This document shows, in pieces, positions 22,781 through 56,497 of a stretch of 64,000 nucleotides of DNA. The stretch's first letter is position 1, and each line of letters begins with the position of its first letter. The notes below the pieces were generated by a model. That model saw only the letters and a list, made by a program, of their open reading frames with translations, made no database searches and was not told where the DNA came from. The DNA comes from Spirochaetales bacterium (lineage in GTDB: Bacteria > Spirochaetota > Spirochaetia > JABEVK01), in the NCBI GenBank assembly GCA_037142615.1, contig JBAXAI010000010.1, positions 57,966 to 121,965 on the forward strand. The letters run 5' to 3'. The position numbers were made by a program, and so were the translations under genes.

Positions 22781-22782
22781 CC

Positions 22783-25007: not shown

Positions 25008-25823
25008 TTACACCCAGCGCTCCCGCAGCAATTCCATCATGTGCACGTTGAGCTCCCACTGTTCGGCAACGGGTTGGGCCGTGTACGGGAGCGCCGGCAT
25101 GTACGGCGCCGGGCCAAACTCGGGCGTCACGGTGAAGGTGGCAGCCCCGGCCTGCTGGTGACGTGTGAACACTTTGTCCCACCAAGTGAGGTGTGCCTCG
25201 ACGGCCGGCTGCCACTCGGGAGCCCTGGGATCGCTCACCTGGGGGCCTTGGGCGTGACCCACCCGGGCGTGCAGGTGGTCGGTGCGTTCTATGGCCAGCG
25301 CCAGCGACTCGGCCTGGTCTTCAAGCAGCGATTCGGACACGTTGCACCAATGCGAAAAGTCGGCCGTGAGGCGCAGTTGCGGGTCGTCTCGCAAAAAACC
25401 GGCGGTGACGGCGGCCGCGTACGCGAACTTGGCCCTGTGGGTCTCGTGCACGATTTTGACACCGGTTTGAGCCGAAACCTCGGCCGCCACGTCGAGGATG
25501 CGGCGGTTGAGCTCGGCCGGGAACCAGTCCCTCCCCGTCTGCGAATTGATGAACAACGGCTTGGCGGCCGCAACCCACTCGAGGTGCGCCCGGTACTCGC
25601 GCAGGTGAGCCAGGGGGTCGGCCGTGGTCGTCTCCCAATGTTGGCCGATCAACTGTAGCCCCTGCGCTGCCAGCGCCCCGAGAATCTCCTCGGTGCCCTT
25701 GCGGTCGTCGAGCGGTAGGCTGCACTCGACCCCGTGGAAGCCCGCTTGGCGAACCTTGCGCGCAAAGTCTGCCCACGAAAGGCTTTCCGAGCCCCAGCGT
25801 GGGCAGAAGAACTGAAGTTCCAT
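25008..25823 (-). CDS. Sugar phosphate isomerase/epimerase-like TIM-barrel protein
   Basis: HETHR, TADFSHW, HLHARVG, TPEFGP.PY. Confidence 0.82.
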   Translation of the reverse strand: MELQFFCPRWGSESLSWADFARKVRQAGFHGVECSLPLDDRKGTEEILGALAAQGLQLIGQHWETTTADPLAHLREYRAHLEWVAAAKPLFINSQTGRDWFPAELNRRILDVAAEVSAQTGVKIVHETHRAKFAYAAAVTAGFLRDDPQLRLTADFSHWCNVSESLLEDQAESLALAIERTDHLHARVGHAQGPQVSDPRAPEWQPAVEAHLTWWDKVFTRHQQAGAATFTVTPEFGPAPYMPALPYTAQPVAEQWELNVHMMELLRERWV

Positions 25824-25827
25824 GGTG

Positions 25828-26904
25828 CTACTTCGACCCGCAGCCGCAGGTGGTGAAGGCCATCACCTTGGCCATGATGGTCTTTTCGTAGCCCGGCATC
25901 GAGAGCACGTCGCATTCGCTGCCAATGATGAACGGGTGGCCCGAGGCTTTGAGTTTGCTTTCAATCTCGCACACCAGGTCGGGAATGCCGCTCAAGGGGA
26001 CCTCTTCGTCGGAATAGAACTTCTTGGTAGGGAGGTTGCCGTACAGCACCGTCGTCTTGGGCACCAAGGGCTCGGCCTCCCACAGCTTGACCGGGCTGCC
26101 GAAGCTGATGATCACCGGGTCGAGCACCGCAAACGAGGCGATCATCTCGGGCGTGAGCGAGCCGCAGTCGTGGAAAATCAGGTCGGTGCCGTGCTGGTTG
26201 AACAACGCTTTGAGCCTCAGGTTGGGCTCGATGACGAAGGTTTGGTACACGGTGCCACCCTCGGCAATCTGCTTGGGTGAAAAATACACGAGGTTGGCCG
26301 CGGGTTCGCACAAAAAGATGGCTTTGGCACCGGCCTTGATCTGCGCCAGCACGCAGGCGTGCACGGTCTTTTCGCACAGGTCCATCAGCGACGCCAGCAG
26401 CCCGACTTCGTCGTCGTCCTCGGGCGCGACACCACTGCCCGCCATGTAGATGGGCGTGATGGGGTCTTTCATCAGCTTGGTCATCAGCGAGAACGGGCCG
26501 ATGCTCATGCCGATGGGCACTTCCTTGCCCCCAGCCGCGAACGCCTTGGCAATCGCCGCCAGCGAGTCGCAGTTGGCCTTGATGCGCGGCGAGCCAAGCA
26601 CATCCATGGCAGCCACCTTGGCCACCAACGCGGGGTCGGGCTTGTCGTGAAAATGGTAGGTGGGAATGGCGGCCGCCGCAACGCCCATGGTGCGCAGCAT
26701 CACGTCTTTTTCGAGCGTGAGGTCCATGATGGGCAGCGCCAGCGGGCTATCGAAGCGGCGGGCGGTTTCGAGCATCACTTCGGCCAGGCGTTTGCCGTCG
26801 AGCAGAATGGCTTCGGGGTCCGATTTTTCGTGCAGGACGAGATGCGTCGCCACGGGCAACCGTTTTCCGGAAGCTGCGAGCGAGAGATAAAACGATCGGT
26901 CCAT
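25828..26904 (-). CDS. UROD/MtaA(CmuA)-family methylcobamide methyltransferase
   Basis: GPFSL, CEPAA, Zn motif FHDCG...GSECDV, YGNLP; directly downstream of the corrinoid protein gene. Confidence 0.8.
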   Translation of the reverse strand: MDRSFYLSLAASGKRLPVATHLVLHEKSDPEAILLDGKRLAEVMLETARRFDSPLALPIMDLTLEKDVMLRTMGVAAAAIPTYHFHDKPDPALVAKVAAMDVLGSPRIKANCDSLAAIAKAFAAGGKEVPIGMSIGPFSLMTKLMKDPITPIYMAGSGVAPEDDDEVGLLASLMDLCEKTVHACVLAQIKAGAKAIFLCEPAANLVYFSPKQIAEGGTVYQTFVIEPNLRLKALFNQHGTDLIFHDCGSLTPEMIASFAVLDPVIISFGSPVKLWEAEPLVPKTTVLYGNLPTKKFYSDEEVPLSGIPDLVCEIESKLKASGHPFIIGSECDVLSMPGYEKTIMAKVMAFTTCGCGSK

Positions 26905-26918
26905 GGGACGCTCCTTGG

Positions 26919-27551
26919 TCAGCTGACGAGTTCGATGGCCTTGTCGCCAGCCGAAGCGGCGTCGGCCGTGTACGCGTCGGCTCCGATGCTGGCGCAGAAG
27001 CTGTCGGTGATGGGGGCACCACCGATCATCACCTTGACCTGCTTGCGCACGCCGGCGGCTTCGAGGGCTTCAATGACGGTCTTCATTTCGTTCATGGTGG
27101 TCGTCAACAGCGCCGAGAGCGCCACGATCTGGGGCTTGTGCTCGTGCACGGCAGCCACAAACTTTTCCGCCGAGACGTCGACGCCGAGGTCGATCACTTC
27201 GAGGCCTTTGCCTTCCATCATCATGCGCACCAGGTTCTTGCCGATGTCGTGCAGGTCGCCTTTGACGGTACCGAGAATCACCTTGCCGGTGGCTTTGACT
27301 CCGGCTGTCACCAAATAGGGCTTGAGCAGTGCGGTGCCCTGATTCATGGCGCGGGCGGCGATGAGCACTTCGGGCACGTAGACCTCGTTGCGCTTGAACT
27401 TGCCGCCGATGATGTTCATGCCGGCCATCAGGCCGTCTTCGAGAATGCTCTTGGCCGCAATGCCCTGGTCGATGGCCTGCTGCACCAGCTCTTTCACTTC
27501 TTTGGCTTTACCCTTCTGCAAGAAGGTGGAAATGTCGTCGAGAATTGCCAT
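26919..27551 (-). CDS. Corrinoid (cobalamin-binding) methyl-carrier protein, MtaC/MtbC type
   Basis: Cap domain YVPEVLIAARAM; GTVKGDLHDIGKNLV, SALLTTT, MIGGAP. Confidence 0.95.
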   Translation of the reverse strand: MAILDDISTFLQKGKAKEVKELVQQAIDQGIAAKSILEDGLMAGMNIIGGKFKRNEVYVPEVLIAARAMNQGTALLKPYLVTAGVKATGKVILGTVKGDLHDIGKNLVRMMMEGKGLEVIDLGVDVSAEKFVAAVHEHKPQIVALSALLTTTMNEMKTVIEALEAAGVRKQVKVMIGGAPITDSFCASIGADAYTADAASAGDKAIELVS

Positions 27552-27586
27552 GCTATTCCTCCGTTTATCGTCCGTTTCTTCTGTTC

Positions 27587-27639
27587 AGCTTAAAGCAAGC
27601 GGTGACTGCCGTATTGCACTCCCTTACGCTTTTTGGGAC
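27587..27639 (-). promoter_or_regulatory. Activator-dependent promoter, copy A of the shared 53-bp motif
   Basis: Plus strand agctta-N18-gtattgcac-N11-ttttgggac; same spacing at 35289 and 56445. Confidence 0.75.
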
Positions 27640-28898
27640 AAATTGCGGTTCGTGAGCCAGGCTGCCAGGCCCGCCGTAGGCAAGACCACAGCCCGGCTGC
27701 GGAGTTTCTGGTACGCCGCCAAGCCGGGGCCGCCGGTAAAGTCGCGCAGGGCCATGGGTTGGTCTTCCAAAAGGACCAGTTCGCGGGCTTCGGCGGCCGC
27801 CTCGAGGTTGCGCAGGTTTTGGGCACCGACCACCAGGTTGCCGACGATCACCAGGTCGGCCTCGCGCACCAAACGGCAGTTGTCGGCGTGGGCCGTGTCG
27901 GAAAGGGGTGAGAACGGCGGCGAGACCACGCTGACCAAGTCGTAGACGCCGGCCACGTACAGGTCGCTGTCGCCGGGGCTGAGCACACCGGTCGACACCT
28001 GAAAGTCACCTTCGGCCAGCTCGCGAAGCACCGCCGAGGCCGCCCCGCCGCCGCCGATCACGTGGATGCGGGGTGCCGTGAGGCCGGGGTCGGTTCCCCT
28101 CAAGTGAAAATCGAACTGACCGGTGGCAGGATTGACGTACACCCGCACCTGAACTCCGTAAGCCGCCTCGAGGTTACCCGGCGTGAAAACCTCACTGGGG
28201 GTCCCTTGAGCCAGGACTCGGCCTTCGGCCAACAGCACAACCCGGGTGCAATACCGTGCGGCCAACCGCAAATCGTGCACGGCTGCCACGATGGTTTTTC
28301 CTTCGGCGGCCAGAGTTTGCGCGTAGCGGAAGGTCTGCTGCTGGTGGCTCAGGTCGAGGCTCGCGCTGGGCTCATCGAGCAGCAGCACCGGCGTTTGCTG
28401 CGCCAGCACCTTGGCAAACAGCACGCGCTGGCGCTCGCCGCCCGACATCTGGTCGAGGGGCTGCAACGCCAGCGCCTCGGTCGCGGTGAACGCCATGGCC
28501 TGGGCCACCGCGCGGCGGTCGGCGGCCGACTCCGGGCGAAAACGGCCCTGGTGGGGGTAGCGGCCCATCATCACCACGTCGGCGGCCGGGAACGACGAGG
28601 TCAGCGCCGTGTCCTGGTGCATCAGCGCCACCCGTAGCGCGATCTCGCGCGGCGGCAGGCCTCGCTGGGCCTGTGAAGTCAAAGGTTGGCCGAACACCTC
28701 TACCTGTCCTTCGAAGGGGATCAAGCCCGCCAAACATCGCAACAGCGTCGACTTGCCCGCACCGTTGGGTCCCAGGATGCCCAGAATCTCGCCGGGGAAC
28801 ACCTGCAGGTCGAGCCCCCGCAACACGGGTTTGTCGCCTAGGGAGCAATGCAGCCCTTGCACCGAAAGCGCGGGGCTCGAGACGCCTCCGGCGCTCAC
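27624..28898 (-). CDS. Cobalamin ABC transporter ATPase (BtuD-like) with a C-terminal extra domain
   Basis: GPNGAGKST, MSGGERQR, LLLDEP; GTG start overlaps the permease stop. Confidence 0.88.
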   Translation of the reverse strand: MSAGGVSSPALSVQGLHCSLGDKPVLRGLDLQVFPGEILGILGPNGAGKSTLLRCLAGLIPFEGQVEVFGQPLTSQAQRGLPPREIALRVALMHQDTALTSSFPAADVVMMGRYPHQGRFRPESAADRRAVAQAMAFTATEALALQPLDQMSGGERQRVLFAKVLAQQTPVLLLDEPSASLDLSHQQQTFRYAQTLAAEGKTIVAAVHDLRLAARYCTRVVLLAEGRVLAQGTPSEVFTPGNLEAAYGVQVRVYVNPATGQFDFHLRGTDPGLTAPRIHVIGGGGAASAVLRELAEGDFQVSTGVLSPGDSDLYVAGVYDLVSVVSPPFSPLSDTAHADNCRLVREADLVIVGNLVVGAQNLRNLEAAAEARELVLLEDQPMALRDFTGGPGLAAYQKLRSRAVVLPTAGLAAWLTNRNLSQKA

Positions 28899-29935
28899 AG
28901 AGTCCCTCCGCGCCGCACACTGCGCAACAGCAAGAACAGGAAGTACGGCGCTCCCACCAGCGCGGTCACAATGCCCACGTTGATCTCTTGCGCGCCCAGA
29001 GCCATGCGGGCCACGAGGTCGCAGATCACCAGAAACGCCGCGCCGCCGAGCGCTGCCGCCGGGACGAGCAGACGATGATCGGGACCCAACAACAAGCGCA
29101 GAATGTGCGGCACGATGAGGCCGACAAAGCTGATCGGCCCGCTGATGCAAACCGCCGAGGCCGTCACCGCCGACACCAGAACCAGCAGAATCAGGCGGGT
29201 ACGGAACACATCGACGCCAACGGCCTGCGCTTCCTCTTCGCCCAGCAGCAGAACGTTCAGGTCGCGGGTGAACCACAGCAGCGCAAATACCCCGGTGCCG
29301 ATGGGCAGAATCACGAGCCCCAGCGATTCCCAGCGCACGTTGTACAGGTTGCCCATCGACCAAAAGAGGAACTGCGCGATGCTGTCATGGCTGGCAAACG
29401 TGAGCACCAGCGACGTGCCGGCCCCGAAAAATGTGCTCACCGCGATACCGGCCAAAATGAGGGTGAACAGGCCCATTTTGCCGGCCCGAATGGCCAACAC
29501 AAAAATGATTCCGGCGGCGGTGAGCGAACCCAGCGACGCAAACACCGGCAACGCCCACGCGCTGGTGGCGGCAACCCCGAGAGCAATGCTGAGCACAGCG
29601 CCAAAACCCGCGCCGCTGGACACACCGATGAGTCCCGGGTCGGCCAGAGGATTGCGCAACAGGCCCTGCATCACCGTCCCCGCGACCGCCAACGCAGCAC
29701 CGATCACCACGGCCCCGAGCACGCGAGGCAGGCGCACCAGAAAAATGATGGCGTCCCACTTCTGGTCGGGAGGCGGCAACCATCCGGCGGGAAAGCCCAG
29801 CCGCGCCAAGATCACCCCGGCCGTGTCGCCCAGCGGCACCGACACCGACCCGATGGCCGTCGCCACAAGCACCAGCCCCAACAACGCCAACGTCAGAGGA
29901 AGCAGAATCCACCACGCCAGGCGGGGGGTATTCAT
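28895..29935 (-). CDS. Cobalamin ABC transporter permease (BtuC/FecCD)
   Basis: RLPR, QGLLRNPLADP, FVGLIVPH, GAPYF. Confidence 0.93.
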   Translation of the reverse strand: MNTPRLAWWILLPLTLALLGLVLVATAIGSVSVPLGDTAGVILARLGFPAGWLPPPDQKWDAIIFLVRLPRVLGAVVIGAALAVAGTVMQGLLRNPLADPGLIGVSSGAGFGAVLSIALGVAATSAWALPVFASLGSLTAAGIIFVLAIRAGKMGLFTLILAGIAVSTFFGAGTSLVLTFASHDSIAQFLFWSMGNLYNVRWESLGLVILPIGTGVFALLWFTRDLNVLLLGEEEAQAVGVDVFRTRLILLVLVSAVTASAVCISGPISFVGLIVPHILRLLLGPDHRLLVPAAALGGAAFLVICDLVARMALGAQEINVGIVTALVGAPYFLFLLLRSVRRGGTL

Positions 29936-29948
29936 CGCGGTAGCGGGC

Positions 29949-30896
29949 CTAGCGGAACAGCGCCGGGTAGCCGGCTTTGGCCAGGTCTTCCACCGCGTCG
30001 GCCATGTACTGACTGGTCGACTGCAGGTGCTTGTCTTGCATCACCAGCACCCGTTTGTTCTTGACGGCCTTGAGCCCAGCAAACACGGGGTCGGCCACAA
30101 AGTCGGCCAGAAACTTGGCCGCATCGCTGCTGCCGTCGTAGCTCCAGCTGGGCAACAGGATCACGTCGGGGTCGAGGGCCAACACCTGCTCTTTGCTCAC
30201 CTGAGGCCAGCCGGACAGGCCAGCCTTGGTGGCGACGTTCACCAGCCCGGCTTTTTCGATCAAAGCCTCAAAGCTGGTCCCTTTGGCGTAGGTGCTGCCC
30301 CAGAAGCTGTAACTGAGCACGGTGGGTTTGGCGGCGACGCCCTTGAGCTTGGTGGCCACTGCTGCCAGACGTTTTTCCACCGTGGCAAGCAAGGCCTTTC
30401 CCTTGGCGGTTTCACCGGTGACGGCCGCCATCTGGGTGACGAGCGTGGTCAGCTCGTCGAAATTGTCGGGCGTTTTGAACACGAACACCGGGATTTTGGC
30501 CTCGCGCAGGGCAGCGATGAACTCGGGTTCCTTCCAACTGGCCACGAACACGAGGTCGGGCTGCAACGCGATGATCTTTTCTTTTTCGCCGGCGATTTTG
30601 GTGGGAAAGGCCTTGGCCCAGGCAGCGATGTTGGAAATGCCCGCGTCGGTGGCGAAACTGTCGATGGCCTTGATGCGGCTCTGGTCGACCAGTTCGATGA
30701 GGATTTCGTCGGTGGGCAACGTGAGCGAAATGATGGCCTTGGGAGCGGCGGACAAGGTGATGGCCGTGCCTTGCGCATCCTTGAGCGTGAGCGGGAAAAC
30801 CTTGTCGGTCGCCCCGGTGCCGGCGGCATTGAGGCCGACAAGGGTTGTGAGCAGCAGGGACGACAACGCGACCCGGCGCAACAGGTGAGAACTCAT
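29949..30896 (-). CDS. Cobalamin ABC transporter substrate-binding protein (BtuF-like)
   Basis: Signal peptide; P..IISL, EKIIALQPDLV, LKAVKNKRV; lies downstream of a B12 riboswitch. Confidence 0.88.
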   Translation of the reverse strand: MSSHLLRRVALSSLLLTTLVGLNAAGTGATDKVFPLTLKDAQGTAITLSAAPKAIISLTLPTDEILIELVDQSRIKAIDSFATDAGISNIAAWAKAFPTKIAGEKEKIIALQPDLVFVASWKEPEFIAALREAKIPVFVFKTPDNFDELTTLVTQMAAVTGETAKGKALLATVEKRLAAVATKLKGVAAKPTVLSYSFWGSTYAKGTSFEALIEKAGLVNVATKAGLSGWPQVSKEQVLALDPDVILLPSWSYDGSSDAAKFLADFVADPVFAGLKAVKNKRVLVMQDKHLQSTSQYMADAVEDLAKAGYPALFR

Positions 30897-30899
30897 GGT

Positions 30900-31005
30900 G
30901 AAACTCCTATCTCTCGTAGGTTTTCAGTACGGCACCGAGGTGAGCGACCTGGCTTTACAGTGGCGGGACCGCGCGGGATTTTCACCCGCTTCCCTCTGCC
31001 TCGGC
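30900..31005 (-). ncRNA. Cobalamin riboswitch, compact form, with expression platform over the RBS
   Basis: Minus strand gccgagg..GGGAAgcgggTGAAAATcccgcgcggtCCCGCCACTGTAaAGCCAGg..cctcggt upstream of btuF. Confidence 0.85.
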
Positions 31006-31158
31006 TGTCTGTCAACACTGTCCATTCAAGCGCATTTCGGCGGTGCGTTCTAGCAAAAACCGGGGAATCTTGGGATTATTGCATCAGGATACGGCACGTG
31101 AACGTCACACTTGCCATGGTATCTTGCTCTGGTGAGGGGGGGGGAGTATCATGACAAT

Positions 31159-31341
31159 ATGGCAACCATGACTGGCATCCAGGTACCTCCCCCTCCAATT
31201 CCTAGCAAGGAAGAGAAACATCAGATGACCCTAGAAGCCCTGAAGAGCATTGACGAGGGTCGAGTGTCCACCGACAAGGAAGCTTCGGCCTGGCTCAGAA
31301 GCCTAGGTACCGCCAATCCTCTTCCACGCCCTCACAAATGA
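31159..31341 (+). CDS. Antitoxin-like small protein (C-terminal part of a CopG/RHH-type antitoxin)
   Basis: TLEALKSIDEGRV...AWLRSLGTANPLPRP; ATGA overlap with a ParE-like gene. Confidence 0.6.
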   Translation: MATMTGIQVPPPPIPSKEEKHQMTLEALKSIDEGRVSTDKEASAWLRSLGTANPLPRPHK

Positions 31342-31547
31342 GCGTTATCTGGTCCAATGAGTCCCTCGAGGATATGGAGCGGATTTACGAGTTTCACGCC
31401 GAGTTCAGCGTTCACGTCGCCAGGCGTGTCGTAGCGATGATCCGAAGAGCAACCAAGTTGCCAACTGTGTTTCCGCAAGTCGGCCGCCCGTGTGATCGGT
31501 ACATCCCCAGAGACGTCCGGGTCTGGCCTTCCAAAGAAGACCGCTGA
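31338..31547 (+). pseudogene. Truncated RelE/ParE-family toxin
   Basis: VIWSNESLEDMERIYEF...FPQVGRP; stops at 69 aa and lacks the C-terminal strands. Confidence 0.65.
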
Positions 31548-31629
31548 GCTACGGCATCCAAACCTTCTTGGCCCAGCGGGTGCCCTTCGGCCCTCAGGCA
31601 ACGAAAACTACACTGGCAGTACGGAATTG

Positions 31630-32175
31630 TCAAATGCTTTGCGGGAAGTGAGTTAGCAGACAACTCGTGAACGTCACCGTGAGAGAGCCATGGTTGTAGG
31701 GGATGCCGTTGGCCTCGCACACTTGGCTGACGAACAGCCCGTAAGCCTCCATCGACACGATGGCCTTATCGGGAAAACGGCATGGTTCCGCCGGGCACGG
31801 ACATTCGGCGCAAAGCGTGCAGGCCCCGGCGCCCATGGGCAAACAGTGGGGTACCGTTCCACGCACGTCGCCCACCAACTGGTGAAACCGTTGGTTGTGC
31901 AGGGCTTGCGCCGCCTCCATGGACTCGTAGTCGAAGTCGTCATCAAGCTTGCCGACCGTTTGCACCAGAATGCCCCGCTCGAAGGCAGCCACCTTCCGGG
32001 TAGACTCGTCGAGCGTGCCGCAATGGGGCGGGCAGGTCCAGTTTTTGCCATAGCTGCGGCAGGTGTTGGCGGCGCACATGGAGCGCACCTCGGGCAGAAA
32101 CTTGAGCGTGGCGACGCTTAGTTCGCCGGCGTCTTCGAAGCCGTGGTCGCGGGCGAGTTGCAAAAGGGCGGTCAT
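31630..32175 (-). CDS. DUF2284-family Cys-rich metal-binding protein
   Basis: C...C..YGKNWTCPP, GAGACTLCAEC, CRFP, SMEAYG. Confidence 0.85.
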   Translation of the reverse strand: MTALLQLARDHGFEDAGELSVATLKFLPEVRSMCAANTCRSYGKNWTCPPHCGTLDESTRKVAAFERGILVQTVGKLDDDFDYESMEAAQALHNQRFHQLVGDVRGTVPHCLPMGAGACTLCAECPCPAEPCRFPDKAIVSMEAYGLFVSQVCEANGIPYNHGSLTVTFTSCLLTHFPQSI

Positions 32176-32489
32176 TCCTTGCTGATCCGCATCACCACGT
32201 CCTTGGGGAGCGCGAGGACGCAAGCCACTTCGATGCCTTTGAGGATGGCTGCCGGGACGGGGCAGGCGGCGTGGTGGCAGTGAAGCCTCGCCGCCTTGGC
32301 CACCGTCGAACTACCCCATTTGCCGAGCACTTCGGTATAGCCATCGAGTTCCTGCAGGTCGGCCTCCATGGCCTTAATGGCCTCGCAGTCGGAGGTGAGG
32401 CTGACTTTGACCTGCAGGTCGTCATCGGCGACGGCCGTGATTTCGGTGGTGAACCCGCAGATTCCAGGTTCAACGTGCACGTGTGCCAT
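32172..32489 (-). CDS. Small Cys-rich protein (DUF6951-like)
   Basis: PGICGF.T, SDC, CHHAACPVP..ILK.IEV...LALP. Confidence 0.75.
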   Translation of the reverse strand: MAHVHVEPGICGFTTEITAVADDDLQVKVSLTSDCEAIKAMEADLQELDGYTEVLGKWGSSTVAKAARLHCHHAACPVPAAILKGIEVACVLALPKDVVMRISKE

Positions 32490-32500
32490 GGACTTCTCCT

Positions 32501-35282: not shown

Positions 35283-35288
35283 CGTCAC

Positions 35289-35341
35289 AGCCTAGCGCCC
35301 GCCGCGCGGACTGTCTTGCACATTGGCTTTATTCTTGGGAC
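35289..35341 (-). promoter_or_regulatory. Activator-dependent promoter, copy C of the shared 53-bp motif
   Basis: Plus strand agccta-N18-gtcttgcac-N11-tcttgggac. Confidence 0.7.
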
Positions 35342-36348: not shown

Positions 36349-36382
36349 GTTGATTCTCCTTCTTGAACCAAGGCTCTCGCCT

Positions 36383-38215: not shown

Positions 38216-38234
38216 GAAAATACTCTCCTCTCGC

Positions 38235-38263
38235 AAAAAAGAGGGGCCTTATGGCCCCTCTTT
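38235..38263 (-). terminator. Rho-independent terminator-like hairpin after the binding-protein gene
   Basis: aaaaaagaggggcc-ttat-ggcccctcttt. Confidence 0.75.
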
Positions 38264-44232: not shown

Positions 44233-44245
44233 GATTTCTCCTTCC

Positions 44246-44569: not shown

Positions 44570-44663
44570 GCTTTCAGGCTACCACAGATTGACAGCCTGT
44601 CAAGAATATTTTCCACTATTATCAACTAATTTACCTTCTTTTTTCCTTTTGGATGCTAAATAT

Positions 44664-46828: not shown

Positions 46829-46845
46829 GTGCCCCCCGGATGTCT

Positions 46846-47873: not shown

Positions 47874-47921
47874 TGTCAAGCTAAATATTCAGCTTGACAT
47901 TTGATAAATATGCGTTATGCT
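47874..47921. promoter_or_regulatory. Divergent promoter region with back-to-back TTGACA boxes forming a palindrome
   Basis: tgtcaagct-aaatattc-agcttgaca, then tatgct as a -10 on the plus strand. Confidence 0.6.
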
Positions 47922-47960
47922 TTTGATGAAATTAACCAGACCTCGAATCAGGAGTGGAAA

Positions 47961-49199: not shown

Positions 49200-49266
49200 C
49201 TGGCCTCAACCTGCTCCTTGCATCGTTGGTCCAAAGCTGGTAAAATATTTATCAGACGAGGACGCC

Positions 49267-51366
49267 ATGGCAAAAGTAACACTGAAGGATGTCGCCGAGG
49301 CGGCAGGGGTTTCGATCACCACGGCTTCCTTTGTTATGACGGGCAAGGGTCGCATCTCGACCGACATCCGGCAGAAGGTTCTCGAAGCGGTCGAGACCCT
49401 GGGTTACCGCAAGTCGAACAAGAGCGAGCCCGAGGTGAAGCCCCAGTCGGTAATTGGCATTTTGTTCAGCATCGACGCGGAATGGGCCATGACCTTTGGG
49501 TTTGTCCGCCCCATCCTCGAAAGCATCGACAGTTTCTTCTCGATCCGCGGTCACACTGTCGTGATTGTTCCCATCAGCGAGCATTTGGCCGCCGACGAGA
49601 TCTTTCGGCGCATTGACAGTTTGGGCTGCCAAGGGCTGTTTTCCCTGCACTACGGGAACGACGCTCTGTTTACCAAGCTGGAAAGCCGGGGCACGCCGGT
49701 GGTGCTCATCATGAACGGCAACTTTCAGAGCCGGTTCTCGACGGTTTGCGTCGATGACTTTCAGGGGGCCTACGAAGGGGCTATCCACCTGCTCCAGGCT
49801 GGTCACCGCAAGATCGTGTTCATCGACATCGAGCGTGAGGGCCTGCCCATGCTGTCGATCGACCGGTTCATCGGCTTCAAAAAGGCCATCGACGAGTTCG
49901 ACGTGCCCATCAGCGACATCGAGCGCCTCACCTACGACCCGCGCGACCACGAGTACCTGCGCAACCGCCTGCGGGCGACTTTTGCCGTGCCGGAGCATCC
50001 AACGGCCATTTTTGCCCTCGATGACGACATCGCCGCGCGCACACTTTCTGTTCTCACCGAGCTTAAGATCCTGGTACCCAAGGATGTGTCTCTGATTGCG
50101 CCAGGCGACCTGAACGACTACAGCCAGGAGCACACGCCGCGAATCAGCACCATGCAGATCGATACCAGCCTGATGGGGACGATTGCCTGCGGCATCATGG
50201 AAAACCGCCTCAACCGGAGTGCGGCAGGAATCAACGTGCTCAAGGTGAAGCAGCAACTGATTCTGCGCGGTTCCACCCGCCCCTTCGACTCTGGTTTCTC
50301 GCGCATCCAAGGGAAGAAGCCGTCGCAGTTGTCGCCGCGCGAAAAGGCGCTGGCCGCCTTCAACCACGTTGAGACGGGCGCTGTGCCGAAATGGCTGGGT
50401 GCCTCACCCGAGTTTTTGGCCAAAGTCGGCGCCGAAATGGGGCTCGACGAGGACGGCTTTCGCCGGCGTATCGGCGATGACTTCCGCCGTGTCGAATCGC
50501 TCATCGGCGGCGCAGGCTCACGGTGGCGCAGCCCCTTTGGCCACGACAGACGTCTGGTCGGTTACGGTCAGCCCACCGTGAAACCGCTGCTCGAGCGCCG
50601 CACCCTCGCCGCCTTGAGGGCCTTTCCGTGGCCTGATCCTTCGTCGGCCGACATCAGCGCCATCGCCGAACGGGCACGGCTTCAGCACGGCGAGTTCGCC
50701 ATCCTGGGTGGGGAATGGTCGCCCTTTTGGCACGACGCGATCGACTTCATCGGCACCCAGGAGCTGTACTACCTGATGTACGACGATCCCGATTTTGTGC
50801 TGGTGCTGCTCGAGCGCATCGTCGACTACTACGTCGCTGTGACGGCGGCGACCTTCGAGACGGCGGGCAAGCACATCGATATCTTCTTCCTAGGAAACGA
50901 CTTTGGCGGGCAAAACGGACCACTGTTCACGGTCGACCAGTTTGAACGCTTTATTGCGCCTTCGCTCAAGCGGCTTGCCGACCTGGGGCATCGCTACGGC
51001 AAGAAGGTGATGTTGCACTCCGCAGGGGGCATACGACCGCTGGTGCCCGCGATTATCCGCTCGGGGGTCGATGCCTTGCACGGGTTACAGCCCGACTGCG
51101 CCGGAATGAGCGCGCTCTCGCTGAAAAAGGACTATGGCACGCGGATCTGCCTCAGCGGGGGCATTGATGCCAAGGACCTGCTGCTCAACGGCACGCCAAA
51201 GACCGTGCGAGCTGCCACGCTGGATCTGCTGAAGGTCTTCGCGGTGGGCGGTGCCTACGTGGCCGCACCCAGCCACGAGGCGCTGCTGGCCGATACCCCC
51301 GTCGAAAACGTGCTGGCCCTCTTTGACGCGGTTACGGAGTTTGAAGAGGATGCACACGGGAAGTAG
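49267..51366 (+). CDS. LacI-family regulator fused to a C-terminal UROD/MtaA-fold domain
   Basis: VTLKDVAEAAGVS HTH and LacI sugar-binding domain ending LILRGST; then PREKALAAFNH...WPDP...GNDFGGQ...MLHSAG...LQP...GGID...APSH in one continuous ORF. Confidence 0.88.
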   Translation: MAKVTLKDVAEAAGVSITTASFVMTGKGRISTDIRQKVLEAVETLGYRKSNKSEPEVKPQSVIGILFSIDAEWAMTFGFVRPILESIDSFFSIRGHTVVIVPISEHLAADEIFRRIDSLGCQGLFSLHYGNDALFTKLESRGTPVVLIMNGNFQSRFSTVCVDDFQGAYEGAIHLLQAGHRKIVFIDIEREGLPMLSIDRFIGFKKAIDEFDVPISDIERLTYDPRDHEYLRNRLRATFAVPEHPTAIFALDDDIAARTLSVLTELKILVPKDVSLIAPGDLNDYSQEHTPRISTMQIDTSLMGTIACGIMENRLNRSAAGINVLKVKQQLILRGSTRPFDSGFSRIQGKKPSQLSPREKALAAFNHVETGAVPKWLGASPEFLAKVGAEMGLDEDGFRRRIGDDFRRVESLIGGAGSRWRSPFGHDRRLVGYGQPTVKPLLERRTLAALRAFPWPDPSSADISAIAERARLQHGEFAILGGEWSPFWHDAIDFIGTQELYYLMYDDPDFVLVLLERIVDYYVAVTAATFETAGKHIDIFFLGNDFGGQNGPLFTVDQFERFIAPSLKRLADLGHRYGKKVMLHSAGGIRPLVPAIIRSGVDALHGLQPDCAGMSALSLKKDYGTRICLSGGIDAKDLLLNGTPKTVRAATLDLLKVFAVGGAYVAAPSHEALLADTPVENVLALFDAVTEFEEDAHGK

Positions 51367-51647: not shown

Positions 51648-54392
51648 TCAGTAGAAGGCTCCTCCCACGTCGAGGCTGAGCACGGGACCGGCCGACGGAC
51701 CAGCCAGAGCTTGATCGAGCCGAACTCCAACGGCGAGGGGGGCCCGCAGCAGAATCGGGACCGCCCCCGAGCGGAAGTTCAAGGCGATGCGGGTGTAGAG
51801 GTTGTCGAGATAGCGCCCGTCCAGCCATAAGCCCTGGTAGCCCGACTGCAGGTCGAGGCTGTTGGCAAAGCCGATGCCAGGAAGGTCGCGGCGGATCGGC
51901 ACCGAAAAGCCAAAGTTCACGTCACCTTGAACCAACCAAGTCGATGCGAGGTTGCTGCGAACAAGCGCCGGGGAAACCTGGTAGGGCACGTCGCCGAGCC
52001 AAAGTGAACCGTCGCTGGGCAAGGGGCCCGCAGTGCCCAAGGTTAGGGCCCCATTGGTGACTGCCACGCCCGAGACGGTGGCCGAGGTACGCCAGAACGG
52101 CAGAATGACCGACAGGCCGGCCCCGCCGAGTCCTGCCAAATCGACGCCGTTCCAGGCGGTCTGGGTCTGGAAACCCCACTGTTCGCCCGAAAAGTCCACG
52201 GGTCGCAAGTTTTGGTAGATCGCCTGGACCCCGAACGGCACCGCCACCCGGGGCGATGCGAATCGATAGGCAGCGCCGTTGGCAGGGCCACTGGCGGCGA
52301 GCAAGGCCCCGACATCCGCCATCCACGACAGGGTATCCGAGACTCCGTACCAGGTATCGACCACCGAGACCCGGGTGCCGGTCTTGCGGACATCCTCACC
52401 ACGCTCGGGATAACCGACCAGCCGGTCGAAGGCCGAAAAAGACCAGTCTACAGACCCAGCGGTGGAAGTGAGATCCAGATTCCACTCGGCAAAGTTCGAG
52501 GTCCAAAGCCACGCGGCGCTGGTCGCCAAAGCCAGCGTTTCGGTCGGGTCACTCGCAGTGGTGCCCACTCCGGCGCCGCGAACGAGGTTCGCGACATCGC
52601 TGAGGTCGGTGGCGTGCGGATTGAGAACAAACGTCGGGTAGCGGAACTGGGGAACCAGGGCCCAGAGCCACGGGGAATAGGCTTCGGCTCGCTGCTGCGG
52701 GAGCCGGTCGTAAGCGCTGGGCCGCGCGAGCTCGTCGGGGCCGAGCGGTACCTGCGTCACCGGCACCGAGGTCGCCGGAAGGTCGGGCAGTTCCATCAGG
52801 CGATGGCCCTGCGCCTGCCCCGAAACCGCGTACACCTTGCCCCCAGCCGCCACCGGGTACTGAACTCCCCCGCTGACCGCCGGGTAGGTGGTGATTTGGT
52901 CACGCTCGAGCACGCCGAGTTTCAAAAACGTGCGATCGTTGTCCCAGGCGAACCAGACCCGCTGCCCGTCGCTGCTGATTTGCCGTATCCCCTGCAGTCC
53001 CGCACCCTCGACGATCGAAACCGCCCGGGTTGCCGGATCGACAAAGGCCAGTTCCTGCTGGCCATCGCGCTGGAGCAGGAACGAGACGCGGCCGTCGTCG
53101 AAGGCGGTCGGCGCCGCAGGAACCAGGCGTTCGGTGCCAGCCAGAAGCACCGTTTCCACTCCGCCCTCGAGGGCAACCAGATCCATCGTGTAGCCATGGA
53201 CCCGGCAGGCCACCAAGCCCTCGCCAAGGTACGAGGCCTCGACAAGGTGCGCGGGGAACACTTTACCGGTGGGCCTTCCGGCCTCCAAGTCCCACTCGGT
53301 GAGCACGGCCGTCGACAAGGCGCCGTCGGCCTCGGACCGACTGATCAGCAGCCGCCGACCGTCGGGCGAGACCGCGAGGCGGTTGGCGTACTTGCCCAAC
53401 TCGGTGAGCAGGACAGGCTTGCCGTCGCGGCGGGTCCAAAGGCCCCGGTAGTCGGACCAGTAGAGCTTCTCGCCCCAGGCCGCGGTGGCGACAATGTAGC
53501 CTGGGCCGTCGTCCACGGGCTTCAGATCGACGCGGAGGGCCTGTCGGGGTTGCATCCAGAGCCGGAAGTCTTCCCAGGCCTCGGCCAGGCTACGGCCATA
53601 AGCCGTCCGGAAGGCGCCCTGGAACCACAGAAAGTCCTCGAGGCCCCCCGCGCGGCCGAACGCGTGAAAAAGCTCGGCGTACTTTTCGAGCCCGTAGGTG
53701 TCTTGCAGGTAGCGCGAAAACCAGCCGCCCCAACTGTAGAAGCTGCCCGAGGGGTACCCGGTGGTGGCGCCGGCGGTTTCGGTGAAGGTCGGCCACCGGT
53801 TCTCGACGATGGCCTGCTGAAGAACCGACGCGAACGCCGCATCGTTGGCCCTGCCAAAGCCGTCGGCGCTCTCGAAGCTGACGGTGACGCCCTCGACGAA
53901 GTTGGCCGGAGTCCAGTACATGGCCGGGTAGAGGGCGTCGCCCAGCAGCGCCACCAAAAAGCTGCCCAGGCCCTCGGTTTGCATCAGCGAAACCGCGTGC
54001 ACAAGCTCATGCAGAAACAGCTTTTTCAGGGTGTCTCGAAAGAGAGCGAAACCCGAGTTCGGGCTGATCGGCGCTTCGTACAAGACAATCCGGATCGACG
54101 GAATCGACGTGAAGTAGCCGTTCAGGTCGTCAGTGTCGGGGGTGAGCACCACCGGAATATGGAGGTTCGTCGGAACCCCCAGTTTGGCCGCCACCTCGGC
54201 GTACAGCTCCTCGGCCTCGCCGGTAAGCAATTCGGCAGCCGCCTGCGACTGGGGTGGAAAGATGAACGTGAAGTGCTCAGTCTTCAGCGTGAGCAAGGGG
54301 CGGCCGTCGCGGAACACAGGGCCGGCTCCCAAGGTCGAGACTGTCAGCAAGAAAAGACCAAGGGAAACCAGAAACGAACGAATGGTGAACAT
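51648..54392 (-). CDS. Large exported protein: HExxH metallopeptidase-like domain, beta-propeller region and probable C-terminal beta-barrel
   Basis: Signal peptide; TEHF, NGY, HELVH...EGVTV..E; SPDG repeat; C-terminal LSLDVGGAFY. Confidence 0.65.
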   Translation of the reverse strand: MFTIRSFLVSLGLFLLTVSTLGAGPVFRDGRPLLTLKTEHFTFIFPPQSQAAAELLTGEAEELYAEVAAKLGVPTNLHIPVVLTPDTDDLNGYFTSIPSIRIVLYEAPISPNSGFALFRDTLKKLFLHELVHAVSLMQTEGLGSFLVALLGDALYPAMYWTPANFVEGVTVSFESADGFGRANDAAFASVLQQAIVENRWPTFTETAGATTGYPSGSFYSWGGWFSRYLQDTYGLEKYAELFHAFGRAGGLEDFLWFQGAFRTAYGRSLAEAWEDFRLWMQPRQALRVDLKPVDDGPGYIVATAAWGEKLYWSDYRGLWTRRDGKPVLLTELGKYANRLAVSPDGRRLLISRSEADGALSTAVLTEWDLEAGRPTGKVFPAHLVEASYLGEGLVACRVHGYTMDLVALEGGVETVLLAGTERLVPAAPTAFDDGRVSFLLQRDGQQELAFVDPATRAVSIVEGAGLQGIRQISSDGQRVWFAWDNDRTFLKLGVLERDQITTYPAVSGGVQYPVAAGGKVYAVSGQAQGHRLMELPDLPATSVPVTQVPLGPDELARPSAYDRLPQQRAEAYSPWLWALVPQFRYPTFVLNPHATDLSDVANLVRGAGVGTTASDPTETLALATSAAWLWTSNFAEWNLDLTSTAGSVDWSFSAFDRLVGYPERGEDVRKTGTRVSVVDTWYGVSDTLSWMADVGALLAASGPANGAAYRFASPRVAVPFGVQAIYQNLRPVDFSGEQWGFQTQTAWNGVDLAGLGGAGLSVILPFWRTSATVSGVAVTNGALTLGTAGPLPSDGSLWLGDVPYQVSPALVRSNLASTWLVQGDVNFGFSVPIRRDLPGIGFANSLDLQSGYQGLWLDGRYLDNLYTRIALNFRSGAVPILLRAPLAVGVRLDQALAGPSAGPVLSLDVGGAFY

Positions 54393-54412
54393 GGCGTACT
54401 CCCGATGCAACC

Positions 54413-54771
54413 TTAATAGGCGTTGGGTAGGTCGTCTTTCAAGAGCGGCGTCACAAACCCCATAGCCGAAGCGCAGAGGTTGAACTGACGGTCCAGGGTC
54501 CAGATCTCCAAGGTGGAGGTTCGAGACGTGCCAGCCCACTCCAATGCGGTGGCAAGATGCAGGGCATCCAAGGTGCGCAGGACCAAGGGGAACGAACCCT
54601 CAGCCCGCCGGTGAGCGACCGAGTTTGGAGGGTTCGCTCGAGGACCCGGGCGACCTCGATCCACAGCAACCGGCTTGATCCAACTTCGGCCTCGCGTGGC
54701 ACCTGGAGAAGTTGGTCGTTCCCCTCTAGCAAGAACGCCAGCACGACGCTGGTGTCGAGGTAGACTCTCAA
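54413..54771 (-). pseudogene. Frameshifted PIN-domain (VapC) toxin
   Basis: VYLDTSV in one frame and LRTLDALHLATA...WTLD in another; the break lies near 54600. Confidence 0.8.
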
Positions 54772-55010: not shown

Positions 55011-55040
55011 AGGGTCAAGTATGAGGTCACAAAAGGAAGT

Positions 55041-56414
55041 TCAGTCAATCCCGTACTCCTTCAGAATGCACTTCTCGCTGTCGATCACGGGAATCATCTC
55101 TTCGATGAAGGCGCTTTCGTTGTCGGGAATCTCGCTGATGATCTCTTGCATCGAGTCGAGGTACTCGGTCTCGCGGTCGTCGATGAGCAGCTGGCCGCTC
55201 TTTTTGGCCGCGCGGAGGAGCTCGATGCCCTTGAGAGCGGCGCGCTTACCGGCTTCGACGTGGTTCTTCGAGGCCACGACTTCCTTCGAAATGGCGATCA
55301 CCGCGTCGGGCGACAGCACCAAGGCCTGGGGGTCGGTGTAGATGTCGGAGTCAACGAACAGCTTTTGCAGCACGGCCGCGTTGCCGCTGGCGATCGAGGT
55401 GTTCATCAGGCGGGTGTCGTAGATCAACTGTTCCATGTACACGGTGGGGGCGTAGCCGCCGAGCAGCTTGATGTTCTGCACGCTCTCGTTGCTCCACAGG
55501 TCGGCCATGGCGGCGGCGATGTTTCCCACGGGACTCATATGCGCGCAGGCGGCTGTTTTGCCTTCCATCGAAATGGGGATGCCGGCGATGGCCTTCATGA
55601 AGGGCCCTTCGTAGCCGCAGTCCTTGCTCGGCCCCACGGCACCGGCCTCGTAGGCGGGCAGCGTGCGCACCACCGAGATCACTCGGTCGATGGCGGCGAA
55701 CACGCGGGGAATGTACTTCTTTTCGGCCAGGACCATGGCGGTGTTGGCAAACCCGCAGGCCGTGTCACCACCGGCTACTCGGCCGGTTTCTTTGGCGATC
55801 TGCACGATGTTCTTCCACAAGAACTGCATGTCGCGCACGCCGAGCACGGTGAGGGCAAACATGGCGCCCTTGATGTCGCAGTACATGAGCGCTTCGTCGT
55901 GCACCTCCTTGCCACCGGTGCTTTCGATCGACAGCATATCGCCACCGGCCAGGGCCCCGTCGCGGAACAGCTTGTACATCGAGTCGAGCAGTTTGCTCGA
56001 GCGCAGCAACGGGGGACGCTCGAAGTCGCGGGCGTCGTTCGGGGTCAGGCGGATCTCGCCGTTGATGCCGTTTTTGGCGCGGTGGTCGGCACAAACGTCG
56101 GCCATGATTTTGGTCAGCTCGATGCCGATTTCGGGCTGCATGGTCATTTCGAGCAGGGTTTCGAACTCGAACACGACGCCCTTCTGGCCCAACTCGTGGG
56201 CCCGTGTGAGCGCCTCGTCGATGATGCTGCGGTAGTGCTCGCGGATCTCGGGCATGGTGGTCTTGCTGATGGTGATGGGGGGCAACGTGAAGTTGAGCTC
56301 GGGGTAAACCGTGCCGCCGCCGATCACCAAACCATGGCTGGTGGTAACGGGTCGGGGGGCAAAACCGAACTTGAGTCCGGCGGCGTTGTCGATGGCCAGT
56401 TTGCTGAAATGCAT
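55041..56414 (-). CDS. mtaB: Methanol:corrinoid methyltransferase MtaB
   Basis: FG.APRPV, GGG.VYPELN, SIESTGGKE, GDTACGFANTAM, GPSKDCGYEG, EGKTAACAH.S, WSNESVQ. Confidence 0.92.
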   Translation of the reverse strand: MHFSKLAIDNAAGLKFGFAPRPVTTSHGLVIGGGTVYPELNFTLPPITISKTTMPEIREHYRSIIDEALTRAHELGQKGVVFEFETLLEMTMQPEIGIELTKIMADVCADHRAKNGINGEIRLTPNDARDFERPPLLRSSKLLDSMYKLFRDGALAGGDMLSIESTGGKEVHDEALMYCDIKGAMFALTVLGVRDMQFLWKNIVQIAKETGRVAGGDTACGFANTAMVLAEKKYIPRVFAAIDRVISVVRTLPAYEAGAVGPSKDCGYEGPFMKAIAGIPISMEGKTAACAHMSPVGNIAAAMADLWSNESVQNIKLLGGYAPTVYMEQLIYDTRLMNTSIASGNAAVLQKLFVDSDIYTDPQALVLSPDAVIAISKEVVASKNHVEAGKRAALKGIELLRAAKKSGQLLIDDRETEYLDSMQEIISEIPDNESAFIEEMIPVIDSEKCILKEYGID

Positions 56415-56444
56415 GAAGTTCCTCCAAGGGTCGCTGATAAGTTC

Positions 56445-56497
56445 AGGTTAACCCTTGGAAACCTTGCCGTATTGGACAACCTTACGAAGTCTGGGAC
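56445..56497 (-). promoter_or_regulatory. Activator-dependent promoter, copy B of the shared 53-bp motif
   Basis: Plus strand aggtta-N18-gtattggac-N11-gtctgggac; extended identity with 27583-27640. Confidence 0.75.

Follow-up and report, generated by a model that had tools for sequence, protein, structure and literature searches.

Can a sugar-import operon deliver methyl groups from its sugars to a corrinoid? This question is raised by a locus in a 64,000-nucleotide stretch of DNA from a Spirochaetales bacterium (contig JBAXAI010000010.1, positions 57,966 to 121,965; hereafter, the window), in which genes for a sugar ATP-binding cassette (ABC) importer, a paralog of the rhamnose mutarotase RhaM and proteins with the fold of uroporphyrinogen decarboxylase (URO-D) lie in one array with genes for a corrinoid carrier protein, a RACo-type activator and a vitamin B12 importer. 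A prior reading of the DNA made without database searches (the sequence-only reading) had proposed that the locus imports O-methylated deoxy sugars and demethylates them, passing the sugar to rhamnose and fucose enzymes and the methyl group to the corrinoid. The analyses reported here support a tie of the sugar-operon URO-D-fold proteins to corrinoid methyl-transfer machinery, on the basis of recurrent synteny, co-occurrence above background, a predicted complex and the presence of a single carrier and a single activator in the genome. They also support a tie of the URO-D-fold module to fucose and rhamnose metabolism. These parts of the earlier interpretation stand, while the MtaB methyltransferase and a MocD-like oxygenase, which it had also included, do not behave as conserved parts of the system. 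We consider it an evenly balanced question whether the locus constitutes a modular corrinoid-dependent methyl-transfer system with imported sugars as donors; these would most likely be O-methylated 6-deoxyhexoses akin to fucose or rhamnose, as the mutarotase paralog and the adjoining genes for fucose and rhamnose catabolism suggest.

Gene array, corrinoid inventory and URO-D-fold proteins

Twenty-one co-directional genes run along the minus strand of the window from position 45968 down to 25008, with short gaps or overlaps between them (Table 1; genes are designated by their start coordinate in the window, and 50300 denotes the URO-D part of the 49108-51366 frame). The sugar half comprises, in order, 44664, the RhaM paralog, 43045, the importer ATPase, two permeases, the binding protein, a methyl-accepting chemotaxis protein (MCP) and an FA_desaturase-family gene. 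The corrinoid half follows with RACo, a PocR-AraC regulator, DUF6951, DUF2284, an adenosylcobalamin (AdoCbl) riboswitch, BtuF, BtuC, BtuD, the corrinoid protein, 25828 and a TIM barrel protein. The sugar operon thus belongs to a single array with the carrier, its activator RACo and the B12 importer. Upstream of it lie an AraC regulator and an FA_hydroxylase-family gene, followed by two plus-strand URO-D-family genes. Genes were picked by codon-position G+C (the window G+C is about 62%), and scans with Pfam (57 window open reading frames, ORFs), NCBIfam (22 of these) and Rfam (the whole window) located every element that the sequence-only reading had named. A promoter and terminator scan of 24800-44700 returned counts equal to those of shuffled sequence (3 vs 3.5 and 23 vs 21.4), and is thus uninformative on operon borders.

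The host assembly (G000; 4.27 Mb, 96.7% complete) presents two B12-binding matches, the carrier 26919 and a 1250-aa MetH, with 26919 being the sole stand-alone corrinoid protein of the genome. RACo and MtaB each yielded one match, within the window in both cases, and the whole corrinoid methyl-carrier apparatus of the genome sits in the window. Four of the seven URO-D-family matches in the genome are also located there, and this clustering exceeds chance. The D99-x-H101-x-x-G104 motif of the carrier is invariant in its alignment (A3), and RACo 33693 contains the Fer2, Raco_middle and RACo_C_ter domains, scoring 294 bits against the NCBIfam AcsV model, below its cut-off of 800. MtaB 55041 is well above the Pfam cut-off (519.5 vs 25 bits) and under that of the NCBIfam equivalog (394.4 vs 720), which identifies it as a family member and not an equivalog. 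It has no carrier gene of its own, lies 28 kb from carrier 26919 and probably provides a second methyl donor route using the same carrier. The host genome returned no matches to DUF1638 or to CdhC/ACS. Acetogenesis was rejected on the latter result, and the proposed methyl flow would hence not be acetogenic.

All seven URO-D-family genes of the genome have carbohydrate genes or the carrier gene as neighbors, and none of them attains the hemE model. The three outside the window are all found in sugar loci. The first adjoins an AraC regulator and a sugar ABC importer, and the second lies among glycoside hydrolase (GH) genes of the GH20, GH63, GH38 and GH4 types, together with an MttB-like gene. 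The third (locus L099, G000:C56, 6743-7744) is beside a LacI regulator and the glucuronate isomerase gene uxaC, a neighbor that raises the idea of 4-O-methyl-glucuronate as a possible donor. The MttB-like gene (PF06253, 85 bits; L098, G000:C7, 7904-9310) is the only member of the MttB superfamily in the genome; its location in the glycosidase operon, beside the URO-D-like gene, places a second corrinoid-type methyltransferase family in a sugar context.

Four of the five URO-D/MtaA-fold proteins reported in the sequence-only reading were recognized by the Pfam URO-D family, and the fifth, 44664, only through its predicted structure. Searches with 44664 returned no Pfam, NCBIfam or PDB sequence match, a PDB profile search was also empty, and sequence homology to URO-D families was rejected (hhalign probability of 0.8% against the 43045 family). 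Its AlphaFold model, built from 19 homologs (pLDDT 80.9, pTM 0.82), was matched by Foldseek to URO-D 4wsh (E 3.8e-7, TM 0.61), MtaA 4ay7 (E 6.5e-6) and MetE barrels. The AF2 model of 43045 (pLDDT 87.8) presents a TM of 0.71 to URO-D and to MtaA alike, and the fold hence cannot tell a decarboxylase from a methyltransferase. The hemE model TIGR01464 (cut-off 302.95) gave 29.0 bits for 43045 and 22.4 bits for 47901, and the MtaA/CmuA models were also far from their cut-offs (26.5-46.4 vs 235.4 bits for TIGR01463; 29-49 vs 244 for PRK06252). In phmmer searches against PDB sequences, 43045 returned no match and 47901 matched CdmB at E 0.62.

Sequences in the 43045 family share 58-95% identity across phyla, and residues H272, C274, E296, C317 and H355 are invariant in 30 members, indicating a highly constrained family. 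Both 43045 and 47901 have an H-x-C motif that aligns to the one in MtaA 4ay7. The 47901 family is characterized by H-[TS]-C and V/I-H-N motifs, stand-alone 50300 members by H-C-C and S-H-D, and the 25828 family by H-D-C and S-E-C-D; among window proteins only 25828 presents the full MtaA-like pattern. A LacI repressor and a URO-D-fold domain share one open frame in three genomes (window 49108-51366 on the plus strand, L002:2501-4600 and L024:4844-6922). The fused URO-D domain of the window has lost the motif cysteines, and the fused copies of the window and L002 carry H-S-A where stand-alone members carry H-C-C, which suggests that the LacI-fused domain is an enzyme-derived, catalytically dead ligand sensor.

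The complex of 43045 (alignment A2) with carrier 26919 (alignment A3) was predicted with ipSAE values of 0.82, 0.80 and 0.80, a mark reached by 58/80 solved complexes and 2/110 mismatched pairs, whereas the highest-scoring of three controls gave 0.00. The runs had at least 91% of contacts in common, with partner pLDDT of at least 86. The predicted interface on the carrier involves the invariant residues 59-67 and the B12 face (103, 106 and 178-180).

Conservation of the module and of its corrinoid partners

A scan of one genome per species identified 180 confirmed relatives of 43045, the best 80 of which were kept as loci L001-L080, and window proteins were mapped on these by tblastn (at least 50% of the query, E 1e-10 or better). 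Many of these loci are short contigs, and counts over the 80 include truncated ones. The tightest partner of 43045 is the RhaM paralog 44246, with a homolog within 10 kb on either side in 45/80 loci, mostly adjoining the 43045 homolog, and together they form a module spread over at least six phyla. Judging by its scores (116.7 bits in Pfam; 50.6 vs a cut-off of 99.6 for TIGR02625), 44246 is a RhaM paralog rather than the RhaM equivalog. Sugar ABC homologs also recur beside the 43045 homolog (ATPase in 24/80 loci, permeases in 22/80 and 21/80, binding protein in 15/80), with median identities of 63-68%, and homologs of 47901, 44664 and the 50300-type URO-D protein were detected in 25, 20 and 43 of the 80 loci, respectively, the last including 13 ORFs with at least 45% identity. 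In some spirochaete relatives, corrinoid genes are also found beside the module.

The closer loci (L001-L028; 63-95% identity) are nearly all named as spirochaetes, and keep rhaM, 43045, 47901 and the ABC genes, with 44664, the 50300-type gene and LacI nearby. The more distant ones (L029-L080; 58-63% identity) are assigned by record name to the Acidobacteriota, Planctomycetota, Latescibacterota, Anaerolineales, Ignavibacteriae, Aminicenantales and some spirochaetes, and keep 43045 alone, often with rhaM. Homologs of the AraC regulator 46058 were found in L001 and L003 (69-72% identity), and in L006 and L013 the binding-protein homolog is likewise followed by an MCP gene. Within the 80 loci, RACo and PocR-AraC were each detected in three and the corrinoid protein in two, one of the latter being MetH; no homologs of 25828 or BtuFCD were identified by tblastn in any of them, and neither DUF2284 nor DUF6951 was found.

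The evidence for linkage to corrinoid genes comes from the regions upstream of the module, scanned with Pfam in seven of the 28 spirochaete-type loci. RACo and PocR-AraC were present, next to each other, in three of them (L006, L015 and L021), DUF1638 in four, a canonical URO-D methyltransferase in two, and CobW and a pterin-binding methyltransferase in one each. L006 opens with a corrinoid protein truncated at the end of the locus (80% identity by tblastn) and continues with PocR-AraC, RACo, a canonical URO-D protein (182 bits), DUF1638 and CobW; next come 44664 and LacI, and then rhaM, 43045, 47901 and the ABC genes. L021 presents the same type of layout, with the pterin-binding methyltransferase at its end, whereas L015 contains PocR-AraC and RACo, and L013 and L007 contain DUF1638. 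Gene order in L006-type loci differs from that of the window, where RACo comes after the ABC operon, indicating that linkage has been kept through rearrangement.

Linkage was also observed in ten RACo regions inspected in nine distant genomes. In two regions from the Acidobacteriota (L081 and L085), a 25828 homolog (43-46% identity) immediately follows a corrinoid protein, and DUF1638 and RACo come next. In L085 this set, with the corrinoid protein at 44% and the 25828-like protein at 43% identity, is preceded by a 47901-like URO-D gene (30%) and followed by two GFO oxidoreductases, and its gene content corresponds to a classical layout of substrate methyltransferase (MT1), carrier, second methyltransferase (MT2) and activator. 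Judged by coordinates, the carrier, 25828 and RACo are again grouped as a cassette in five genomes (G307, G312, G314, G318 and G321). A short contig named as Terracidiphilus (L082; G318:C54, 570-6772) encodes a melibiase, a 47901-like URO-D protein (31%), a sugar transporter and RACo, an independent sugar-plus-activator arrangement in the Acidobacteriota. L083 resembles a split methionine synthase cluster that also contains a URO-D gene, and an MttB-family gene lies near RACo in L086. Five of the ten regions present RACo without such partners, one of them with DUF1638.

At the genome level, 13 genomes out of 301 sampled Spirochaetota contain a 43045 homolog (E 1e-60 or better), family f15 accounting for 11 of these, as does one of 201 sampled Acidobacteriota, this being the centre genome itself. 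Forty genomes holding a homolog were analyzed, comprising 12 Spirochaetota and 28 genomes named as Acidobacteriota, Latescibacterota, Planctomycetota, Anaerolineales, Ignavibacteriae and Aminicenantales. That homologous operons might occur mostly in genomes without carrier or activator genes had been put forward as one of the outcomes that would refute the proposal, and the counts go the other way: RACo is present in 39/40 holders, with G310 as the exception, compared to a background of 74/288 sampled Spirochaetota without the homolog and 30/200 other sampled Acidobacteriota. The corrinoid-protein model matches all 40 holders, 38 of them at E 1e-47 or better; G310 and G328 match only near 1e-38, which is the level of MetH-length frames.

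Relatives of the module likewise point to a link with fucose and rhamnose metabolism. FucI was detected in 4/80 loci, and a Pfam scan of neighbors within 5.5 kb on either side of the 43045 homolog in 12 of the 52 distant loci (L068 was dropped) revealed GH29 or GH95 fucosidases in three of them (GH95 in L040; GH29 in L050 and L064), FucI in L038 and MR_MLE enolase-type, L-fuconate-dehydratase-like proteins in L030 and L033. Other neighbors in these loci include SDR and GFO oxidoreductases, and a xylose-isomerase-like barrel in L033.

Proposed pathway and competing explanations

From computed features (gene content, folds, conservation, co-occurrence and predicted docking) we infer a substrate, a direction of transfer, an acceptor and a set of chemical steps. 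The ABC importer 38283-43048 would take up the sugar, and the adjacent MCP may provide chemotaxis towards it. Proteins 43045 and 47901, and perhaps 44664, would act as substrate-specific MT1 enzymes and hold the methoxy group at the mouth of the barrel, the location of a conserved His/Cys/Glu cluster that is a candidate zinc site. The Co(I) form of carrier 26919 would then attack the methyl carbon, generating CH3-Co(III) and free sugar. The RhaM paralog might equilibrate the anomers of the freed sugar, for catabolism by the fucose and rhamnose enzymes, and the methyl acceptor served by the MtaA-type 25828 could be a thiol or tetrahydrofolate. RACo would use ATP to re-reduce carrier oxidized to Co(II), the riboswitch-controlled BtuFCD importer would supply B12, and PocR-AraC, AraC and the LacI-URO-D fusion would regulate the system.

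A broader proposition, to which we attach somewhat less than even weight, is that O2-independent demethylation of sugar ethers is widespread across phyla, with families of URO-D-fold MT1 enzymes, each devoted to one methyl sugar or ring position, feeding a B12 carrier kept reduced by a RACo/RamA-type ATPase. In the host, one carrier would serve up to seven such enzymes as well as MtaB and the MttB-like protein, and a LacI repressor would use a captured dead copy as ligand sensor. This would be the first instance of corrinoid cleavage of aliphatic sugar methyl ethers.

Several observations weigh against the proposed pathway. Co(I) is not known to cleave aliphatic (non-aryl) methyl ethers, the nearest precedent being methanol with MtaB, the sole known case of Co(I) attack on an aliphatic C-O bond. 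At the position of the third zinc ligand of MtaA, 43045 and 47901 present a His, as in HemE, and not a Cys. CdmB works without zinc, according to the available text of PMC13222342, and the H-x-C motif is hence not diagnostic. Similar carrier-barrel complexes have already been solved, meaning that the predicted complex, which might reflect recall, shows likeness and not binding. A pterin-binding MT2 (PF00809) is represented in the genome only by MetH and by a 298-aa frame on another contig, and 25828 was rejected as a universal MT2 partner, its family being present in 12/40 holders and in none of the 12 Spirochaetota among them. Two di-iron oxygenase-type genes in the locus offer an alternative demethylation chemistry.

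The comparative evidence is subject to similar reservations. RACo is present in all 17 genomes of family f15, with or without the homolog (which 11 of the 17 contain), making much of the spirochaete co-occurrence non-discriminating, and related genomes are not independent in these counts. In aerobes, split methionine synthase is also reactivated by RamA-like activators together with DUF1638, as described in PMC5764234. L083 looks like a cluster of this type, and genome-level co-occurrence may partly reflect methionine synthesis. No RACo was found within 10 kb in four of the seven spirochaete loci scanned, and in the 12 distant loci scanned the 5.5-kb flanks of the 43045 homolog contain no corrinoid-related gene. 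MtaB is present in 11/40 holders, 0/12 spirochaete holders and 0/80 loci, and its use as a general methyl sink, through the reverse reaction and net ether hydrolysis, was dropped on these counts; it might still operate in the host genome.

The 11 holders with full-length MtaB homologs (E 1e-151 to 1e-160) all fall among the 28 holders outside the Spirochaetota and are mostly named as Acidobacteriota (G302-G324). Acidobacteriota-type groups are usually treated as aerobic heterotrophs, and MtaB is unexpected there.

Contigs identical to the window were found in two RNA libraries (X16 and X17) of one study, covering parts of the carrier (27411-27549), the binding protein (38266-39553), permease and ATPase genes, rhaM (44325-44524) and the desaturase (35724-35880); another contig, over RACo (35066-35230), has a one-letter difference. 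The sample of one of the two libraries may be the source of the window DNA. Contigs of this kind are no proof of transcription, and stretches without contigs in X16 and X17 are no evidence of silence. A third library (X23) contained no contig on the window stretch.

MtaB, the carrier, 25828 and RACo make up a complete set of a known type, with MtaB as a strong match, and URO-D itself is cofactor-free. The main alternative, which we regard as unlikely, is that this set, with the B12 importer, serves methylotrophy on methanol or another small molecule and lies beside an unrelated sugar operon, the URO-D-fold proteins of which would perform corrinoid-independent chemistry (decarboxylation, isomerization or hydration) on a fucose-like sugar or sugar acid. 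The distant loci scanned, where the 43045 homolog stands without corrinoid neighbors, are in line with such a separation, as is the ranking by Foldseek of URO-D above MtaA for the models of both 43045 and 44664. The separation is weakened, however, by relatives in which the sugar module has RACo, the carrier and DUF1638 as neighbors although MtaB is absent. Moreover, RACo in 39/40 holders exceeds a background of 15-26%, the predicted docking passes its controls, hemE scores are far from the cut-off, and 47901-like genes lead carrier/RACo cassettes.

A distinctly less probable scenario retains corrinoid-dependent methyltransferases and assigns them a different donor, such as an S- or N-methyl sugar derivative, a methyl ester or an aglycone released with the sugar, or else the methylating direction. 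The H-x-C type of site is thiol-activating in MtaA and MetE, and the host genome carries its MttB-superfamily gene inside a glycosidase operon. According to the available text of two sources (PMC13222342, PMC10418091), known enzymes of the URO-D superfamily use aryl methyl ethers, halomethanes, methylthiols or coenzyme M (CoM). The conserved context argues for the sugar itself, since the tightest partner is a sugar mutarotase paralog and the operons that contain the module serve import and catabolism, and include fucose genes and regulators of the LacI and AraC types; no glycosyltransferase or biosynthetic neighbors were identified among the scanned window ORFs.

The MocD-like oxygenase of the sequence-only reading, 35329, does belong to the desaturase family and is about 31% identical to rhizobial genes adjoining a MocE-family ferredoxin and an FAD oxidoreductase, but no MocE/MocF, Rieske or reductase partner, nor any P450, was found among the 57 scanned window ORFs, and homologs of 35329 and of the FA_hydroxylase 46846 were each detected in a single locus of the 80 (at 27% identity for the former; in L001 at 87% for the latter). 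Oxidative demethylation by these two membrane di-iron enzymes, as proposed for rhizopine, with the URO-D-fold proteins in another role, is hence the least probable of the explanations considered and very unlikely: the rhizobial similarity, a desaturase-Rieske fusion in the L013 neighborhood and the occurrence of the organism in lake and freshwater metagenomes speak for it, and the conservation of the URO-D, rhaM and ABC module without di-iron genes speaks against it. The fusion (L013:5949-7508, from a Treponemataceae genome) combines FA_desaturase and Rieske domains, equivalent to MocD and MocE in one protein, near the sugar module.

Relation to known systems and other genes of the window

The architecture of the proposed pathway is known from O-demethylase/dehalogenase systems and MtaABC. 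New elements would be the families of the candidate MT1 proteins, their setting among sugar genes and an aliphatic ether as substrate. As in the three-component systems of anaerobes, which rely on MT1 enzymes of the UroD superfamily (MtvB, OdmB, VdmB, MtoB and CdmB), candidate MT1s, a small His-on carrier and a RACo-type activator are encoded together. In contrast to those systems, whose donors are aryl methyl ethers or halomethanes, the donors proposed here are aliphatic sugar ethers, 43045 and 47901 show negligible sequence similarity (PDB phmmer), an MtaA-type URO-D protein adjoins the carrier where known bacterial MT2 proteins are pterin-binding, and the genes lie within a sugar-import operon with a mutarotase in a host that is not an acetogen. 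Modular use of one carrier by several MT1s is described for the anaerobe systems in the available text of PMC13222342. The MtaABC system of Methanosarcina (MtaA 4AY7) resembles the locus in that MtaB has a homolog in the window and 25828 presents the H-x-C...C motif, but the window provides no CoM pathway context and the MtaA/CmuA models remain far under cut-off.

The MtgC, RamA and DUF1638 system, as presented in the accessible portions of PMC12478193 and PMC5764234, likewise has one carrier and one activator serving several methyltransferase modules, glycine betaine demethylation and methionine synthesis among them, also in aerobes, and sharing of this kind would explain homologs in the Acidobacteriota. 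Its donors are quaternary amines, used via MttB-family proteins, whereas the host genome lacks DUF1638 and encodes a full-length MetH. Type 1 mlp clusters differ in that they are proposed for methyl-sulfur or methyl-selenide metabolism, and the available text on them (PMC10418091) describes them without a sugar importer or mutarotase. MocDEF, which acts on the rhizopine 3-O-methyl-scyllo-inosamine, shares the desaturase family of 35329, and differs in the partners and conservation discussed above.

Glycans of plants, mosses, algae and bacteria commonly contain O-methyl sugars, which include 2-O-methyl-fucose and 2-O-methyl-xylose in pectin, 4-O-methyl-glucuronate in xylan, 3-O-methyl-rhamnose and 6-O-methyl-galactose. 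A search of full-text literature, covering main texts, found no corrinoid-dependent sugar O-demethylase, in agreement with the sequence-only reading, and returned only the P450 demethylation of 6-O-methyl-D-galactose in marine bacteria. The task of that route, removal of the O-methyl group before sugar catabolism, is the same, and in the available text of PMC6292453 and PMC9400963 it requires O2 and releases formaldehyde, while the proposed system would be O2-independent and keep the methyl group on cobalt. If correct, the proposal would fill a gap on sugar O-demethylation in anoxic communities, since the sole enzymatic sugar demethylation in the literature searched is the O2-dependent P450 reaction. 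It would also establish aliphatic ethers as a new substrate class for B12-dependent methyltransferases, link the degradation of glycans in lakes, peat and guts with the flow of C1 and methyl groups, and provide a function for large uncharacterized branches of the URO-D superfamily now annotated as haem enzymes. With all the parts in one locus, and one carrier and one activator in the genome, the window constitutes a good test case.

Named homologs of window proteins are from the Spirochaetota, including the Rectinemataceae and Treponemataceae, and window DNA recurs in freshwater and lake metagenomes from 10 studies, leaving out metagenome runs with a small share.

Table 1. Coordinates of the array, its flanking genes and the sugar catabolic clusters in the window, with the supporting matches
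Feature	Coordinates	Strand	Support
rha genes (RhaA, rhaM, class II aldolases, FGGY kinase)	18-6433		Pfam; RhaA 595.8 bits
fuc genes (FucU, PfkB, FucI, FGGY kinase)	19559-24425		Pfam
Xylose-isomerase-like TIM barrel, last gene of the array	25008-25823	-	PF01261 30.0 bits, under cut-off 31.1; no NCBIfam match
URO-D family with MtaA-type H-x-C...C motif, candidate MT2	25828-26904	-	PF01208 52.6 bits; motifs HDC, SECD
Corrinoid protein	26919-27551	-	PF02310 (B12-binding) 98.8, PF02607 (B12-binding_2) 72.7, TIGR02370 196 bits
BtuFCD-type B12 ABC importer	27624-30896	-	ABC_tran; FecCD permease 28895-29935, 306 bits; Peripla_BP_2 29949-30896
AdoCbl riboswitch, directly upstream of the binding-protein gene	30896-31020	-	RF01482 50.8 bits vs gathering score 50, E 2.3e-6
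DUF2284 (predicted metal-binding) and DUF6951	31630-32489	-	PF10050 156.5 bits; PF22263 117.5 bits
PocR-sensor AraC-type regulator	32501-33946	-	PF10114 and HTH_18
RACo-type ATP-dependent activator	33693-35288	-	PF14574 203 bits, PF17651, Fer2
FA_desaturase-family membrane di-iron protein (MocD-like)	35329-36429	-	PF00487
Methyl-accepting chemotaxis protein	36383-38236	-	MCPsignal and HAMP
Sugar ABC importer	38283-43048	-	Peripla_BP_4 38283-39473; BPD_transp_2 39518-40537, 40524-41609; double ABC_tran 41561-43048
URO-D family, candidate MT1, overlapping the ATPase gene by 4 bases	43045-44232	-	PF01208 75.3 bits
RhaM-family mutarotase paralog	44246-44569	-	PF05336 116.7 bits
Very divergent predicted URO-D-fold protein	44664-45968	-	No Pfam family; fold from AlphaFold model
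AraC-type regulator	46058-46933	-	HTH_18
FA_hydroxylase-family membrane di-iron protein	46846-47841	-	PF04116
URO-D family with H-T-C motif, candidate MT1	47901-49199	+	PF01208 80.4 bits
LacI, Peripla_BP_3 and URO-D in a single open frame	49108-51366	+	Pfam; URO-D 72.3 bits
MtaB family	55041-56414	-	PF12176 519.5 bits

A 963-aa ORF between the LacI fusion and MtaB (51648-54539, minus strand), which has no Pfam family, was rejected as part of the system. Its Atlas structure matches are TolB/PD40-like envelope proteins, some of them Omp85-bearing (TM 0.82-0.87), and it probably bears no relation to the proposed pathway. Minus-strand genes of the rhamnose cluster include one of the LigB-type extradiol dioxygenase family (1814-2623) and one for a class II aldolase of 464 aa in which two stretches were matched (2697-4091). 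MtaB is followed by a PIN-domain gene (56528-56917, minus strand), and an F-type ATP synthase operon encoding the beta, gamma, alpha, delta and b subunits (58887-63764, minus strand) occupies the end of the window.

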